The translations under genes and the position numbers were made by a program. This document shows positions 11,782 through 59,614 of a stretch of DNA of 64,000 nt, piece by piece; position 1 is the first letter of the stretch; each line of letters begins with the position of its first letter. Below the pieces are notes generated by a model. That model did no database searches, was not told where the DNA came from, and was given only the letters and a program-made list of their open reading frames with translations. Origin of the DNA: Eledone cirrhosa (Eukaryota); contig OZ024747.1 in the NCBI GenBank assembly GCA_964016885.1, positions 61,628,001 through 61,692,000 of the forward strand, in the 5' to 3' direction.

Positions 11782-12173
11782 TATAAGAATATACATACAT
11801 ATATGCACATATCTGTATATATAACATACCTGGACCATCACTTCGAAATTACTGAATATCCAAGTGAGGTTTCTGTAAATCCGAAATCAACAAAATCCGC
11901 TTGTGGTGTATACAAGTTAGGTTTCTGGAAGATCAAACAGAGGAATTTACTTTCTCAACAGGCTTTTGTTCTAACCCAAAATCCGGTGTGAAGCACATGT
12001 TACTCCAAAGGGAGATAACCCCGGTTTATGATGGTCAATTCAAAAATTATGAGCAATGGAAAAAATTCCATGCACAAACTGAATTAAGCACTCAACCAGA
12101 CCGTTATTAAATATATATGTATGTATATATATCTGTATCTATATATGTGTGTATATATGTGTATATATATATG

Positions 12174-24015: not shown

Positions 24016-24224
24016 ATATGGGTATGTTGATGTTTCTTTCTTTGCTTTTTGTTTTTCCCCGTCCATCGTCCATTGTGTTTCTTCCCAAATAGCTATCCAA
24101 GAATAATTATTGATACACTGTGGTGAATAGTCTGGTCCTTAATGCATTTGAAACTATAATGATCCACATAAGACAGCTGATGAGTGGGAATTGTCCTTGT
24201 GTTTGTGTCTTCCTTGATTCCACC

Positions 24225-26289
24225 CACGTAATGTCGACCCAATAGAGGGACCAGCAGTGTTAGTCGAGGGGAGTATAATAAGTAAGGCAATCAAGGATAT
24301 GAAGACAGGTAAGGCGGCTGGGCCTTCGGAAATAGTTGCTGAGATGCTGAAGGCATCTGGCACGGTGGGACACACCATGGTCACCCGCATAGTTAACCAA
24401 GTCGTACAGAATGGGGTTGTTCCGAAGGACTGGCATAGCAGCATCATCGTTAACTGTTATAAGGGTAAAGGAGACGCCCTAGATAGGAGTAACTATAGAG
24501 GCATTAAATTAATCGACCAGGTCATGAAGGTCACAGAAAAAGTAATAGCGCAACTAATCAGAGAGAGAATTGACCTAGATGAAATGCAGTTCGGGTTTGT
24601 GTCAGGCAAAAGTACCACAGACGCCCTTTTCATAGTACGACAACTACAGGAGAAGTACCTAGCTAAAGGTAAACCCCTCTACTTAGCTTTTGTCGACTTG
24701 GAGAAAGCCTTCGACAGAGTCCCCCGCTCCATTATCTGGTGGGCTCTTAGAAAACTAGGCGTTGACGAATGGCTTGTGAGGGCTATACAAGCCATGTATA
24801 AAGAAACAGTCAGCAAGGTTAGAATTAACAACGAATATAGTGAAGAGTTTAGCGTAAAAGTTGGCGTCCATCAGGGCTCTGTTCTCAGCCCCCTACTATT
24901 TATTATTGCCCTTCAGGCTATAACAGAGGAGTTCAAGACAGGCTGCCCATGGGAACTCCTATACGCAGACGACCTGACACTCATAGCGGAATCAATGGCC
25001 GAGCTAGAGAAGAAATTCCAAACATGGAAGCACGGCCTAGAGTCAAAAGGACTTAAAATTAACCTGGCTAAGACCAAAGTTCTAGTTTGTAGGAAAGAAA
25101 ACAAGGCGGCGGTCCCTTCTGGGAAATGGTCGTGCTCGGTGTGTAGGAAAGGCGTAGGTAGAAACTCCATTTTGTGTCCTAAATGCAAAGTATGGGTGCA
25201 TAAAAGATGTAGTGGGATCACAGGTAAGCTAACTAAGAACATAGATTTTACATGTGGCCGGTGTTCTGGTGCAATAAGTAGCAGCAAGTGCCCACACAAT
25301 ACTAGCTCTTTCAATTGCGCAGAGGGTTCTATAGAAATAGTGGACAGCTTCCGTTACCTGGGCGATAAAATCAGCAGTGGGGGAGGGTGCTCTGAAAGTA
25401 CTGTAGCTAGAGTCAGAACTGGTTGGAAAAAGTTCAGAGAGCTTATACCACTATTAGCTGCTAAAGGGTTCTCCCTAAAAATGAAAGGCAGGTTGTACGA
25501 TGCCTGCATACGAACAGCAATGTTGCATGGCAGTGAGACCTGGGCATTGTGTGCAGAGGATATACGCAGACTAGAGAGGAACGAAGCTTGCATGCTCCGC
25601 TGGATGTGTAACAGTAATATACGTGAACGGCAAAGCATAAACGAACTAAGGAAAAAATTAGAGATAAGAGGGATCAGATGTTGTTTACTCGAGAGAAGGC
25701 TACGTTGGTATGGACACGTGATGCGCATGAAAGTCGATAGCTGTATAACAAAGTGCAGGGCAATAAAGATAGACGGTAGCCATGGAATAGGCAGACCTAG
25801 AAAAACCTGGGACGAGCTGATAAACTCCGACCTCACACACTTACACCTCTCCAAGACAATGTCACTGGACCGAGACCTTTGGCGGTACTCAGTAACAGAG
25901 AAGACCCGCCTTGCCAGTAGGCATCTCTAACAAAATACACCCCGTCCCACCACCACCACCCCCACCCCATCCACACCACCCCGTCCTATGTAAAGTTATG
26001 TTGGTGCCGCGCCATCCGGGCCGAAACAAATGAGATCGTGTAGGTGTCACGACAAAAAAACACACAGTCCACGCTGTAATGTGGCCGTGTAGGCAACACG
26101 GTAAAAACCTCCCAGACCCACACTGTAAATGTGGTTGGTGTTAGGAAGGGCATCCAACTGTAGAAAACCTGCCAGACAGTCCTATGCGAGCAAGACAATC
26201 ACTCTTGCCTCAAGTGGGACTACCCCCGTCCAAACCCATGCAAGCGTGGAACACGGACGTTAAACGTTGATGATGATGATGATGATGAT
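24225..26289 (+). mobile_element. 5'-truncated RTE-clade LINE with 3' UTR and (GAT)n tail
   Basis: RT ORF, ~340-bp 3' UTR, ends CGGACGTTAAACGTT(GAT)n. Confidence 0.95.
24257..25930 (+). CDS. RTE LINE reverse transcriptase and C-terminal region (endonuclease missing; start is not a true initiation codon)
   Basis: Motifs KAAGP, NYRGIKL, QFGF, FVDLEKAFD, GVHQGSVLSPLLF, LLYADD, FRYLG, RRLRWYGHV, GRPRKTW; 557 uninterrupted codons. Confidence 0.93.
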   Translation: MLVEGSIISKAIKDMKTGKAAGPSEIVAEMLKASGTVGHTMVTRIVNQVVQNGVVPKDWHSSIIVNCYKGKGDALDRSNYRGIKLIDQVMKVTEKVIAQLIRERIDLDEMQFGFVSGKSTTDALFIVRQLQEKYLAKGKPLYLAFVDLEKAFDRVPRSIIWWALRKLGVDEWLVRAIQAMYKETVSKVRINNEYSEEFSVKVGVHQGSVLSPLLFIIALQAITEEFKTGCPWELLYADDLTLIAESMAELEKKFQTWKHGLESKGLKINLAKTKVLVCRKENKAAVPSGKWSCSVCRKGVGRNSILCPKCKVWVHKRCSGITGKLTKNIDFTCGRCSGAISSSKCPHNTSSFNCAEGSIEIVDSFRYLGDKISSGGGCSESTVARVRTGWKKFRELIPLLAAKGFSLKMKGRLYDACIRTAMLHGSETWALCAEDIRRLERNEACMLRWMCNSNIRERQSINELRKKLEIRGIRCCLLERRLRWYGHVMRMKVDSCITKCRAIKIDGSHGIGRPRKTWDELINSDLTHLHLSKTMSLDRDLWRYSVTEKTRLASRHL

Positions 26290-27525: not shown

Positions 27526-28910
27526 TCATCATCATCATCATCATCAGGTTTAGCGTCCGTGTTCCACGCTTGCATGGGTTTGGACGGGGGTTTTCCCACT
27601 TGAGGCAAGAGTGGTTGTCTTGCTCGCATAGGACTGTCTGGCGGGTTTTCTACAGTTGGATGCCCTTCCTAACACCAACCACATTTACAGTGTGGGGCTG
27701 GGAGGTTTTTACCGTGTTGCCTACACGGCCACATTACAGCGTGGACTGTCTGGCGGGTTTTCTACAGCTGGATGCCCTTCCTAACACCAACCACATTTAC
27801 AGTGTGGGGCTGGGAGGTTTTTACCGTGTTGCCTACACGGCCACATTACAGCGTGGACTGTGTGTTTTTTTGTCGTGACACCTACACGATCTCATTTGTT
27901 TCGGCCTGGATGTTGTGGGACCAACATAACTTTACATTGAAAGGGGCGGTGTGGATGGGGTGGAGGTGGTGGGACGGGGGGGGGGGGGGGGTTTGATAGA
28001 GATGCCTACTGACTGTAGTAGGTTTTTACTTTGTATTTAGGTAAGGCGGGTCTTCTCTATTACTGAGTACCGCCAAAGGTCTCGGTCCAGTGACATTGTC
28101 TTGGAGAGGTGTAAGCGTGTGAGGTCGGAATTTATCAGCTCGTCCCATGTTTTTCTGGGTCTGCCTACTCCGTGGCTACCGTCTATCTTTATTGCCCTGC
28201 ACTTTGTTATACAGCTGTCGTCTTTCATGCGCATCACGTGACCGTACCAACGTAGCCTTCTCTCGAGTAAACAACATCTGATCCCTCTTATTTCTAATTT
28301 TTTCCTTAGTTCGTTTATGCTTTGCCGTTCACGTATATTACTATTGCACATCCAGCGGAGCATGCAAGCTTCGTTCCTCTCTAGTCTGCGTATATCCTCT
28401 GCACACAATGCCCAGGTCTCACTGCCATGCAGCATTGCTGTTCGTATGCAGGCATCGTATAACCTGCCTTTCATTTTTAGGGAGAACCCTCTAGCGGCTA
28501 ATAGTGGTATAAGCTCTCTGAACTTTTTCCATCCAGTTCTGACTCTAGCTACAGTACTTTCAGAGCACCCTCCCCCACTGCTGATTTTGTCACCCAGGTA
28601 ACGGAAGCTGTCCACTATTTCTATAGAACCCTCTGCGCAGTTGAAGGAGCTAGTATTTTGTGGGCACTTGCTGCTACTTATTGCACCAGAGCACCGGCCA
28701 CATGTAAAATCTATGTTCTTAGTTAGCTTACCTGTGATCCCACTACATCTTTTATGCACCCATACTTTGCATTTGGGACATAAAATGGAGTTTCTACCTA
28801 CGCCTTTCCTACACACTGAGCATGGCCATTTCCCAGATGGGACTGCCGCCTTATTTTCTTTCCTACAAACTAGAACTTTAGTCTTAGCCAGGTTAATTTT
28901 AAGGCCTTTT
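27523..28910 (-). mobile_element. 5'-truncated RTE LINE, sister of 24225-26289, flanked by (TA)n
   Basis: ORF 28037-28816 nearly identical to the C-terminal half of the + copy; same 3' UTR with a 112-bp tandem duplication; (CAT)n tail. Confidence 0.95.
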
Positions 28911-29571: not shown

Positions 29572-30023
29572 CACTCATACACACACACACACATATACAC
29601 ATATATATGTGTATATATATACACACATACACATACATATACATACATACACACATAAATATCAACATATCCATACATACGCATACATATATACACACAT
29701 ATATATAAAAATATAAATATATATATATATATATATACATATATGCATACACATACACATACATAGCCATACACACATACATATACATACATACATACAT
29801 ACACACAATCATACCTATATACACACGTACATACATACACATACATAAATGCATACATATGCATGCACAAAATTAGAAAAATATATACACACCTCTACAT
29901 ATTCACACACGCAAATAAATATAAGAAAAAATATATATAAAATAATAAAAGAAAATTATAAAGTTGACACATATATATATATATATATATATAATATATA
30001 AGAACAAAAGATGGTTAAAAGAG

Positions 30024-30105
30024 TTCCATGTATTTTATTATGCGCATTTCAAAAACAAATATCATCATGCAATAATATTTGTGTTTTCATCAGATAAAAC
30101 AGGAA
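30024..30105 (-). ncRNA. Type I hammerhead ribozyme (mirror copy)
   Basis: Exact reverse complement of 30216-30297. Confidence 0.75.
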
Positions 30106-30215
30106 GACATGATATGAAGGTTAAAAAACACTTGTGGATAGTGCAGTTTTAAATCAACATATGTTGATTTAAAACTGCACTATCCACAAGTGTTTTTTAA
30201 CCTTCATATCATGTC

Positions 30216-30297
30216 TTCCTGTTTTATCTGATGAAAACACAAATATTATTGCATGATGATATTTGTTTTTGAAATGCGCATAATAAAATACATGGAA
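30216..30297 (+). ncRNA. Type I hammerhead ribozyme
   Basis: Stem I TGTTTTAT/ATAAAATA; CTGATGA 30228-30234; long stem II 30235-30270; GAAA 30271-30274; palindromic stem III ATGCGCAT; AUA cleavage triplet ending at 30282. Confidence 0.78.
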
Positions 30298-30527
30298 CTC
30301 TTTTAACCATCTTTTGTTCTTATATATTATGTATACTCCAGTCCTACAAACTGTAGAGTGCTTCTTATCCGATATCTGCATTGCTTTATTGTACTACAAT
30401 AAAACTCACCTCCTATATATATATATATATATATGTACACACACACAATGAACACAACCACAACACACTGCACACACACATATATATACATACACACACA
30501 CATATGCACACACACACACACATATAC

Positions 30528-35205: not shown

Positions 35206-35531
35206 TGTTGCCACAGAGAATGGCTAGTGACACCCACTGCAACAGCCACCCTACCTCATGGGAGTCCTTCCTCAAGTGGCGTGTTGTCTTTCCAGTTTTA
35301 CAGAGGAAAACAGCAGTTCAGGGACTGAGGACACCTGAGGTCTTGATGGTGACCAACACGAAACGGAAGCAAATAGTGAAGCTCCTGAATACACAATCTT
35401 TTGTGTATTCAGTCCCTGAACTGCTGTTTTCCTCTGTAAAACTGGAAAGACAACACTCCACTTGAGGAAGGACTCCCATGAGGTAGGGTGGCTGTTGCAG
35501 TGGGTGTCACTAGCCATTCTCTGTGGCAACA
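35206..35531. repeat. 123-bp inverted repeat (35206-35328 / 35409-35531) with 80-bp spacer
   Basis: One mismatch seen; same peptide in opposite-strand ORFs. Confidence 0.93.
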
Positions 35532-47060: not shown

Positions 47061-47405
47061 TGGAGGCACATGGCTTAGTGGTTAGAGCATTGGCCTTGCA
47101 ATCCAAAGATTTTGAGTTCAATTCTCAGACCGGGTGATGTGTTGTTTCCTTGAGCAAGACACTTTATTTCACATTGCTCCAGTTTACTCAGCTGTAAAAA
47201 TGAGATGATAGGGACTGGGATCCCTATCATTCCACTGCAAAGTGGTCGTGGAGGTGCCACGGCAAAAAAACCACCCAGCACTCACTGTAAATGAGGTTGG
47301 TGTTAGGAAGGGCATCCAGCTGTAGAAATCAAGCCAGAAACTGTTCCCGTCCCACCCTTGCAAGCAGGGAAAAAGCGAACGTAAAATGAAATGATGATGA
47401 TGATG
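47061..47405 (+). mobile_element. Full-length family-A SINE
   Basis: Near-identical to 23675-24015 and 61129-61468. Confidence 0.92.
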
Positions 47406-56900: not shown

Positions 56901-56940
<40 letters not shown>

Positions 56941-56943
<3 letters not shown>

Positions 56944-57090
56944 GATATTGACAAATGGAAACTATATTTATAAAATATAGTTTCCATTTGTTAATATCGT
57001 ATTTTTACTCCAAATATTTGTTGAGTGCTTTATATCAGTTATAAAAATATTTGCTTGTTGTATCCCAACAATTTAAATAGAACTCTTACA
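56941..57090. mobile_element. Mini fold-back (hairpin 56941-57001) plus tail; same family as 59160-59292
   Basis: 29-bp arms with one G-T pair; tail TACTCCAAATATTTGTTGAGTGCTTTATATCAGTT shared with 59209 and 59460. Confidence 0.75.
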
Positions 57091-57105
57091 TATATATATA
57101 TATAT

Positions 57106-58101
57106 TGAATTTTGTGATGCGAGTACATTGACTATTTGCAACACAAACTTCCAGAAACCTGCCAATCACCTAATAACCTACAAATCTGGTGAGCACATAA
57201 GCCAGATTGACTTCTTGCTAGTTAGGCAGCGGGACAGGCAGATAGTGTCTAATACCAAGGCATACCCTGGGGAAGAATGTACCCCACAGCATAGGTTAGT
57301 TGTTAGTGATATCTCAGTAAGCAAGAGATGGAATGAGACATATAGGAAGGTGTGGAGAAGAAAGGTCTGGAAGCTAAAAGACCTTTCACTAAAATACAAA
57401 TTTAGGAAAGCCCTTCAAGATGTATATGACGAAAAAGAAGACGATTTAGAGACGTATGACATAGATAATAACTGGAATTTCTTACGTGACAACTTACTGC
57501 AGGCTACTGATGAAACCTGTGGCTGGAGCAGAGCTCCAACCAGACAGAGAGTGACCTGGTGGTGGAACAGCACAGTAGATAAGGCTATTAGAGACAAAAG
57601 ACTAGCATGGAAGGCTTGGAAAAAGGGTGGGTGTAGGGAAGAATATACAGCCACTAAGAGAGAAGCTAGACGTCAGGTGTACTTAGCACGCAAGGAGGCA
57701 GAGAGTAGGAGGTTTGCCAATGTTCTGCGACGGAAAGATCAGAGGCGTGCGGCGTTCCACATTGCAAGGCAGTGTGTCAATGCAAATCAGGATGTTGTTG
57801 GAGATAAATGTGTCCGGGATGATGCCGGTGTACTTAGTGTCACGAATGATCAGAAAAAGGAGGCCTGGAAATGTCATTATGAGAGACTGATGAATGTGGA
57901 GAACGAATGGGAGAGAGAGAAATTACCCTTGGTAGATCCGACAGAGGGACCAGCTATTGAGATTGACGAATATAGGGTCCAAGAGGCGATTAGGGAAATA
58001 AAAAATGGTAAGGCGGCCGGACCATCGGGAATAGTTGCTGAGATGCTGAAGGCATCAGGGGACGTAGGCAGGGAAAAGCGGACGTAAAATGATGATGATG
58101 A

Positions 58102-58105: not shown

Positions 58106-58130
<25 letters not shown>

Positions 58131-58135
<5 letters not shown>

Positions 58136-58471
58136 TATTAATAAATGGAAACTATATTTATAAAACCATATTTATTTCATTATATATATTTCAAGGATAC
58201 CAAGTTAAATCATGGTATGCCTTCATCAGACAAAATACAATATATAATAGTTTTACAAATACATGCTTACACATGCAATTTTTGATTGCAGATATACATA
58301 ACTTAACAGCCATAAATGCAGAAAAGTTAATCCTATATATTTGTAGATATATACTAAAATTTTTTAATTAATAACACAAGGAGTGTATAGCAATAAATAA
58401 AAAATCACTTATGCTTTGTATGTATACATTGTGTGTGGGAGTAGATATAATGTATATCTCTGAGTGAGTGA

Positions 58472-58521
<50 letters not shown>

Positions 58522-59289
58522 ATGCACCTTTGTCTATGTATATGTGATATACGATAGATAATTTCTCTAGCAATATATTTATTTTGTAGTGTTTAAATTC
58601 CAATTTTTAATATATTGATCTCAATTTTAAACTAAATATATAATCATAATTAAACAATGTGTAATTTCTCATATTATATATCTATATTCCATTCACGAAT
58701 ATTAATATTTCTAATTTTATTTATTCATTTCATCTCAATTGTTAACTCAACTTAATATAACATAACTTATGGTTTTCGTTCTCTCCCCCCTCTCTCTATC
58801 TATGCATATCTCTCTCTTGAGCTCTTTCTATGTCTGATGTTTTGATATCTCCCCGTTATTTTTCCTCTGTTCTCTTTTCTTTTTTGCTTTCTTCTTTTTC
58901 TTTATCTATCTTTCCCTTTCTTTTCTCCACGTTTCTCTCTCTATCTCTCTCTCTCTCTCTCTCTCCATCTTTTTACTTACTCTTAACACTATGACTTACT
59001 AAAGTAAACAAACCACTATCCGGATGGCCTCCAAAAACAACGGTCACCTTTTTGAAAGGGTATGTCAATTATCTATTTGTAAAACTGTTATATATTGTAT
59101 TTTGTCTGATGAAGGCATACCATGATTTAACTTGGTATCCATTAAATATATATAATGAAATAAATATGGTTTTATAAATATAGTTTCCATTTATTAATAC
59201 TGTATATCTACTCCAAATATTTGTCGAGTGCTTTATATCAGTTATAATAATATTTGCTTGTTGTATCCCAACAATTTAAATTGAACTTT

Positions 59290-59292
<3 letters not shown>
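58131..59292. mobile_element. Probable Penelope-like remnant: ~131-bp inverted repeats (58131-58261 / 59074-59204) plus 3' tail
   Basis: Arms reverse-complementary with few mismatches and containing a hammerhead motif; flanked by (TA)n. Confidence 0.7.
58173..58237 (-). ncRNA. Type I hammerhead ribozyme
   Basis: Minus strand TATTTTGT-CTGATGA-AGGCATACCA..TGGTATCCTT-GAAA-TATATA-TA-ATGAAATA; palindromic stem III ATATATAT. Confidence 0.7.
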
Positions 59293-59337
<45 letters not shown>

Positions 59338-59540
59338 AATGAAGTAATTCCATCGGAAAAGTCCAGGAAAAAAGAGTGCTCTATGTATGCAACAGAGCTT
59401 AATTATTATTAAATAATAATTATAATAATAATTATAATAATAATAAATATATATATATATACTCCAAATACTAGTTGAGTGCTTTTATATCAGTTATAAA
59501 TATTTACTCGTTGTAACCCAACAATTTAAATAAAACTTTG

Positions 59541-59614
<74 letters not shown>

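Follow-up and report, generated by a model that had tools for sequence, protein, structure and literature searches.

A hammerhead-bearing palindrome in the Eledone cirrhosa genome as a probable by-product of a Penelope-like element

How does a perfect palindrome come to carry a hammerhead ribozyme motif on both of its strands? The question is raised by positions 29991-30413 of a 64,000-bp stretch of Eledone cirrhosa DNA (hereafter the window), in which an earlier note had described a spacerless perfect palindrome with a tail of about 80 nt, flanked on both sides by (TA)n tracts. This description was borne out in each of its parts. The two arms (29991-30160 and 30161-30330) are complementary over all of their 170 pairs with zero spacer, pair 171 being the first mismatch; the unduplicated tail measures 83 nt, and the (TA)n tracts occupy 29971-29990 and the positions from 30414 onwards. 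A complete type I hammerhead motif is found on each strand, one per arm, as had also been stated; the word 'intact', which was used for it, applies to the motif, that is, to a predicted ribozyme only. The features of the locus are the following.

29971..29990, no strand: left (TA)n target tract; a TA repeat terminates 305 of the 313 non-tandem arms of the family
29991..30162, minus strand: tail-less 'S' arm, an inverted copy from the putative RNA 5' end to an internal 3' end at a TATATTA-like site
30031..30101, minus strand: type I hammerhead motif, core start at 30093
30159..30162, no strand: centre, a self-complementary 4-nt overlap (ATAT) common to both arms
30159..30413, plus strand: tailed 'T' arm, the terminal 255 nt of the pseudo-LTR (pLTR) of an autonomous element, matching the natural long copy L031 at 95.7%
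30220..30290, plus strand: type I hammerhead motif, stems and core read from the sequence and found by a strict descriptor
30331..30413, plus strand: unduplicated tail between the two 3' ends
30414..30434, no strand: right (TA)n target tract, read from the sequence

The tail includes an AATAAA (30398-30403), and its fold is unremarkable (z -1.06). The fold of the whole palindrome reaches -269.6 in the energy model.

In the plus-strand motif, stem I pairs 30220-30227 with 30283-30290 (8 bp, one G-U), the core consists of CUGAUGA (30228-30234) and GAAA (30271-30274), and stem II (30235-30270) has 15 pairs, one C-U mismatch and a 4-nt loop. Stem III is a self-complementary octamer (30274-30281), and the AUA triplet at 30280-30282 predicts a cut after 30282. 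A strict hammerhead descriptor gave three matches in the window, namely the palindrome's two and one at -58229, and none across 300 locally shuffled windows. A candidate at -29381 matched a loose descriptor only and was discarded when it failed the strict one. The folding energy, taken alone, is not exceptional (z -0.4 to -1.7), and no hammerhead family was present among the 150 of 224 Rfam matches listed; microRNA matches from Rfam were rejected as hairpin noise.

Would such a motif act alone or as a dimer? For one molecule, the energy model gives -7.1 kcal/mol with stem III closed and -10.0 kcal/mol with stem III open, that is, a cost of about 3 kcal/mol for closing it intramolecularly. The two-strand stem III duplex amounts to -10.5 kcal/mol, and the best two-molecule fold in the model pairs stem III between molecules, in agreement with the proposal that the palindromic stem III is suited to a dimer. 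Self-cleavage of a monomer from transcripts starting past the centre, which had been proposed as well, is doubtful, in view of the cost of closing stem III and of the absence of truncations at the cut site among 55 internal 5' truncations, the nearest of which is 3 nt away. The earlier note had made its reading depend on conservation of the core among genomic copies; 149 of 160 arms (a sample partly selected on the core) have retained it unbroken, and the sole common core change affects a free position of the hammerhead, position 7. All stem variants present in at least seven arms preserve pairing. A second family, described below, retains the design with a different stem III palindrome, which supports selection for the motif and for a dimer. 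The minimal hammerheads of Cervera and de la Pena 2014 (PMC4209133) are likewise of type I, with a short palindromic helix III and a dimer model, whereas helices I and II are longer here. The same source reports hammerhead pairs 100-700 bp apart on opposite strands in Schistosoma; opposite-strand pairs can here be traced to two start sites of the reverse transcriptase (RT) and a fixed 5' stop.

The motif belongs to a large family. Across the 3.0-Gb genome, a 26-mer from the ribozyme is matched exactly at 12,029 places (reversed control, 0); most adjacent matches are paired, minus before plus, at distances of 130 bp to 5 kb. The longer pairs hold an open reading frame (ORF), of 809 aa in L031 (protein P0001), and four ORFs of at least 700 aa were found within 0.7 Mb of fetched stretches. 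The genomic copies and the parent RT ORF that the earlier note had proposed to seek were thereby obtained. The unit is 3,729 bp long and extends about 1.25 kb beyond the stop codon; the window copy has only its last 255 nt, and no ORF. Over 249 arms, the median identity to the window arm is 96%, as expected of the young family that had been supposed. In the 3' untranslated part of L031 (5630-6057), a tandem duplication of ~215 bp (80% identity) was observed, the copy number of which varies among subfamilies.

P0001 itself had no match in Pfam, NCBIfam or PDB sequence searches. A fold search with its AlphaFold model (pLDDT 82.6) returned telomerase RTs in the top five rows (E 2e-7 to 8e-7), and the motifs YRDDG and SDKTNN (DKT) are present. 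A CxCX5C linker, and CxxC and CxH around conserved E and N, were read by eye, with no CCHH. The C-terminal domain is folded and has IY...YFG strands; Pfam GIY-YIG was detected in 2 of 26 aligned homologues and is absent from P0001. The proposed Penelope-like origin agrees with what long copies encode, a telomerase-like RT with a putative C-terminal nuclease domain. Residues about 589-664, between RT thumb and nuclease, form a low-confidence insert rich in Asn, Ser and Thr, which recalls the N-rich inserts of rotifer Penelope elements.

As in EN+ Penelope-like elements, a single ORF with a telomerase-like RT is found in L031, and copies show a pLTR, partial tandems, an inverted 5'-truncated neighbour and an optional tail (122 head-to-head pairs and 5 tandem arms, the tail being on one arm). 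The Hydra clade of Craig et al. 2021 (PMC8557442) is described as having one ORF, with RT then nuclease, a canonical hammerhead close to the 3' terminus, (TA)n targets and the motifs DKT, CxCX5C and CxxC/CxH; all of these recur here, the nuclease as a putative one and the hammerhead in the terminal repeat. SDKTNN is shared with Hydra-1_Obim of Octopus bimaculoides, and Penelope-13_HM, in the same source, likewise has an inverted 5'-truncated copy and a hammerhead listed on both strands. The element is therefore likely to belong to the Hydra clade, a placement made from protein motifs. Because the hammerheads differ, it is, on sequence grounds, a family distinct from Hydra-1_Obim. Compared with the Hydra elements in PMC8557442, stem II has 15 pairs instead of 3-7, the cleavage triplet is AUA instead of GUH, the tail is about 85 nt instead of 30-40, and the unit is 3.73 kb, when lengths in the clade, as a tendency and not a criterion, are generally under 3 kb. 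At the place of the N-terminal RWK, RW is kept and followed by T (L031) or I (L035, L036) instead of K, and the copy number, over 12,000 arms, is unlike that of the Hydra families published there.

Where the arms end was analysed on 318 arms mapped in 169 merged stretches, which were picked by pattern matches, nearly all in the first 160 Mb of contig C1, so that the shares below describe this sample and are not genome-wide estimates. The 3' ends fall at two places, the tail end (T; 160 of 318) and an internal site ~85 nt upstream (S; 158 of 318), both on TA-like letters of the element. An inverted copy plus a tail, as the earlier note had it, is the usual arrangement: the 122 head-to-head pairs comprise 116 T+S, 5 T+T and 1 S+S. 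In tandem copies, the tail continues directly into the 5' UTR of the ORF. When arm lengths were compared (3 tandem pairs and 1 compound locus being excluded), the two arms were often unequal, and the T arm is then the first to stop in 52 of 69 pairs (p 3e-5); in 16 of 115 pairs it is confined to the tail and does not overlap the other arm. Priming on poly(A) at the tail end was considered and rejected, since an A tract was seen on 0 of 148 tailed arms and the tails of the second family lack AATAAA. One stretch (L042, 1-5855) contains two tail-less arms, and its inverted repeat (2,090 bp, 99.7%) enters the flanks; it is a secondary inverted duplication or an assembly fault.

Two internal RT starts bounding a tail are also known for PAc, a Poseidon element of Anolis and hence of another clade (Frangieh et al. 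2024, PMC11167929), with an AT-rich target, both target strands cut and extended, and an uncut RNA template, as proposed here. The PAc starts are located within the ORF and reportedly have no match to the cut DNA, whereas those of the present element lie upstream of the ORF on TA-like matches. Cap run-off and palindromic stubs are not described for PAc in the available part of that report.

At the 5' side, arms often stop at one base. The window's exact 26-nt centre is carried by 804 loci (1,608 arms). A pattern search for arms that begin at 30159 after any base but C gave 2,652; the pattern misses those that have T twelve positions upstream, roughly a quarter to a third of cases. Read-through of 30159 with natural upstream sequence was found in 5,065 arms; about half of the arms reaching 30159 end there. 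A like pattern 5 nt downstream gave 226 matches, some of which are point changes in long copies. An extra G preceding 30159 was matched 2,329 times. The templated letter at this place is C and G makes up 11% of the region, yet among 100 of the 2,652 rows listed, the base before the stop is G in 56, T in 28 and A in 16. Thirteen of the 56 G rows read CAACATAT-G, where the G may be the partner arm's next templated base, and other Gs may correspond to partner microhomology. In long copies, the context of the putative start site is TCA+1TAT, which we take to be initiator-like. In full-length L1 insertions, the cap typically leaves an extra G (PMC11702581), and the repeat of Penelope contains an internal promoter that lacks a TATA box (PMC2377424). 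The sharp stop, the extra G, this context and the precedent of the internal promoter together point to 30159 as a putative capped transcription start. The position also sits in a self-complementary hexamer, and a preference for joining there could suffice to make the peak this sharp.

The overlap between the two arms of the window copy consists of the self-complementary ATAT. Junction letters vary among copies, which indicates that the mirror is built anew at each insertion. Many junctions cluster within 15 nt downstream of 30159, and four junctions are at a CATG. Some templates must be longer than a transcript started at 30159, because the 5' repeat extends upstream of this position in 2 of 5 tandem copies. 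In the tandem copies L036 (5634-6414) and L057 (449-1062), the 5' repeat reaches 700-800 nt upstream of the putative start; circular, multimeric or read-through templates could be at its origin.

Do the two arms of a pair derive from one RNA? In 43 of 54 pairs, the arms show no difference at 14 shared variant columns, and discordance is 3.3%, compared with 35.6% for shuffled partners (L042 was excluded, as were 9 pairs sharing fewer than 60 columns). Among 80 pairs with an arm starting at 30159, the partner reads through in only one. Independent templates would give about half mixed pairs, and their rarity also makes an arm-by-arm strand transfer of the retroviral type unlikely. Directly upstream of 136 arms starting at 30159 lies an inverted terminal-repeat arm in 117 cases and an inverted arm originating further upstream in 2; 9 have no element sequence there, and 8 have same-strand sequence, namely local duplications, three read-through copies that had been misclassed and one jump. 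Concordance of the arms would also follow if two RNAs came from a single active source locus, or from later arm-to-arm conversion. As for the state of the template, cleaved RNA was rejected because no truncation coincides with the predicted cut, and this is consistent with the use of uncut RNA by PAc (PMC11167929).

We conclude that the palindrome is probably a 5'-truncated head-to-head insertion, for which a single RNA, sense, capped and uncut, was reverse transcribed from two sites ~85 nt apart, both copies running off at 30159. The nuclease of the element would cut both (TA)n strands, and each 3'-OH would prime at a short TA-like match, at the internal site near 30330 or at the tail end near 30413. 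The enzyme at the tail end would trail and have to displace the first cDNA, as is suggested by the T arms that stop first or remain within the tail. Where this takes place on the leader copy of the terminal repeat, the two cDNAs would extend to the cap, often with a C added opposite it, and would be united either by base pairing between their ATAT ends or by end joining. Where it takes place on the 3' copy instead, the outcome would be long inverted arms. The hammerhead, left uncut in the RNA used for copying, would then be a passenger of the terminal repeat, predicted to be active as a dimer via stem III or with the help of a protein. Its likely role would be in a tandem transcript, the two repeats of which would pair via stem III and excise the unit; alternatively, it may serve to cut used RNA.

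The process resembles LINE-1 twin priming (PMC11702581), where both target ends prime on one RNA, cDNAs are joined by microhomology or end joining, and an extra G marks full-length 5' ends. In L1, however, the inversion is non-overlapping and concerns a minority of copies (PMC11702581), whereas here the cDNAs overlap almost wholly, in nearly every mapped pair. A further step would be to regard the stubs as the Penelope counterpart of retroviral strong-stop DNA: a protein dimer would prime both cut (TA)n ends on one capped, uncleaved sense RNA at two sites, the trailing enzyme would displace the leading cDNA, and the self-complementary motif of the start site would join the two. To this fuller version we give an even chance. 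If true, it explains the head-to-head form and the tail of Penelope-like elements generally, it opposes antisense self-priming, and it makes the start site readable from DNA alone. A compound insertion, L188 (G000:C1:108427300-108430400), was also observed. Its tailed arm begins at the putative start with an extra G, and ahead of this arm, in the same orientation, stands ORF sequence (unit positions ~296-2080); the opposite arm likewise begins at the putative start, with G. This looks like a template jump after run-off.

Could the mirror arm have been made without a second priming on the RNA? A single cDNA, or an antisense RNA, might prime itself at a self-complementary motif, and such fold-back has been proposed for rotifer Penelope palindromes (PMC3846280). 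The concordance of the arms would follow, as would the perfectly palindromic inserts at some centres and the preference of centres for self-complementary motifs (30159, the CATG of four junctions and an octamer in the second family). But a fold-back copy must lie within its template and cannot hold sequence absent from it, so that pairs with a short tailed arm need two primings. Fold-back is excluded for these pairs, with the tailed arm shorter in 52 of 69 unequal pairs and without overlap to its partner in 16 of 115. The extra G at the sense 5' end, moreover, fits a capped sense RNA and not an antisense template. Symmetric stubs, including that of the window, taken singly, cannot be told apart as products of fold-back or of twin priming; on the whole of the data, fold-back appears unlikely. 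Twin priming would be kept, but not the capped end, if the RNA were longer and 30159 marked a site of polymerase pausing or a hot spot of end joining. The self-complementary hexamer at 30159 speaks in favor of this, together with the accumulation of junctions within 15 nt downstream and the peak of the second family, which falls on its octamer. The stop, however, is base-sharp regardless of the partner sequence, the commonest added base is G, and the context is initiator-like; a pause acting on each enzyme separately would also mix short and long arms, which is almost never seen. We consider this quite unlikely.

The earlier note had seen in the palindrome a non-autonomous or retrozyme-type insertion, and one may ask whether it propagates by itself, as a retrozyme- or MITE-like element copied whole or from its own short RNA. 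There are indeed 804 loci with a single centre, and each tailed arm is a start-to-tail unit, transcribable if the promoter is internal (PMC2377424). Non-LTR (animal) retrozymes (bioRxiv 10.64898/2026.07.22.740005) are also hammerhead-bearing short repeats derived from a pLTR; these form tandem non-autonomous lineages, whereas the present copies are inverted and have the haplotypes of autonomous ones. Direct tandem arrays of the stub, as expected of a short hammerhead monomer with its own lineage, were not found among the mapped stretches. Junctions vary from copy to copy, the centre being rebuilt at each insertion, and the stub corresponds to the terminal 255 nt of an autonomous element with RT and nuclease. 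In addition, 92 short and 87 long elements share haplotypes (23 columns without difference, lowest p 0.13), and over 153 nt the window arm shows 100% identity with four other copies, one of them read-through and three short. Because haplotypes are common to short and long copies, the short copies are, as judged from these variants, by-products of the autonomous element. The non-autonomous interpretation was thus abandoned, and a lineage of its own seems very improbable.

Perfect palindromes can arise as read artefacts, and no read across this particular locus was observed. The ends are nevertheless fixed and asymmetric, 804 loci have the same centre with varied junctions, and the arms of other copies carry post-insertion differences. 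In run X1, one contig extends across a centre of the same form, with 39 and 44 letters on either side, although it may come from the assembly's own sample and is not locus-specific. The possibility of a fold-back sequencing or assembly artefact, which the earlier note had raised, can be considered negligible. Contigs of runs X1, X2, X4 and X5 contain the family and a bridged centre, which indicates presence and not expression. Run X4 has more A>G places than X1 and X2 (9 versus 5, and 40 versus 29) as well as a single loose end that carries an A run where the tail stops. This is not taken as evidence of editing or polyadenylation, X4 being from another sample and possibly DNA.

The feature as first described is a known type of by-product of Penelope-like elements, and head-to-head copies with a tail and with hammerheads on both strands are already published (PMC8557442). 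In the open-access literature, we found no paper on cap run-off stubs in Penelope-like elements, nor on the common centre, the 30159 stop with its G, the T+S pairing or the concordance of arms. Inverted copies and their tails, a sense versus antisense template, and the role of the hammerhead figure as open questions in PMC3846280, PMC8557442 and PMC11167929. The value of the locus lies in the data set that it opens, a young family of over 12,000 arms with base-level statistics favoring one replication model, and the stub pattern would help to settle the replication mode of Penelope-like elements. The model predicts transcription from 30159, priming of the RT near 30330 and 30413, and a dimer via stem III. 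At least 800 near-perfect 340-bp hairpins are spread through the genome and may affect dsRNA load as well as the stability of the DNA.

The second related family has 377 exact 25-mers in the genome, and one of its head-to-head copies lies in the window at about 58120-59295, with arms on the minus and plus strands and hammerhead motifs. Its tail-less arm has the intact hammerhead at -58229; in the tailed arm, near +59105, the GAAA is broken. Further pieces of this family were found near 56940-57090 and 59460-59545. The same two ends occur, about 90 nt apart. For its putative start, 41 junction rows were retained (8 read-through rows being dropped), of which 19 have G. The family is not a clean replicate of the 5'-stop pattern, because more centres lie on the octamer 3 nt downstream (78 matches) than at the G-marked site (49), and the neighbour control was not lower than the test site.

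Other features of the window were recorded in passing. Long ORFs at 24218-25927, 28040-28909 and 57077-58084 resemble, by eye, fragments of LINE RT or endonuclease. A near-perfect inverted repeat at 35232-35505 and its flanks has arms of at least 110 bp and a unique spacer of ~85 bp, and is GC-richer than its surroundings. Finally, a partial tRNA-like match above the Rfam gathering score, at 47071-47128, is possibly the head of a SINE.
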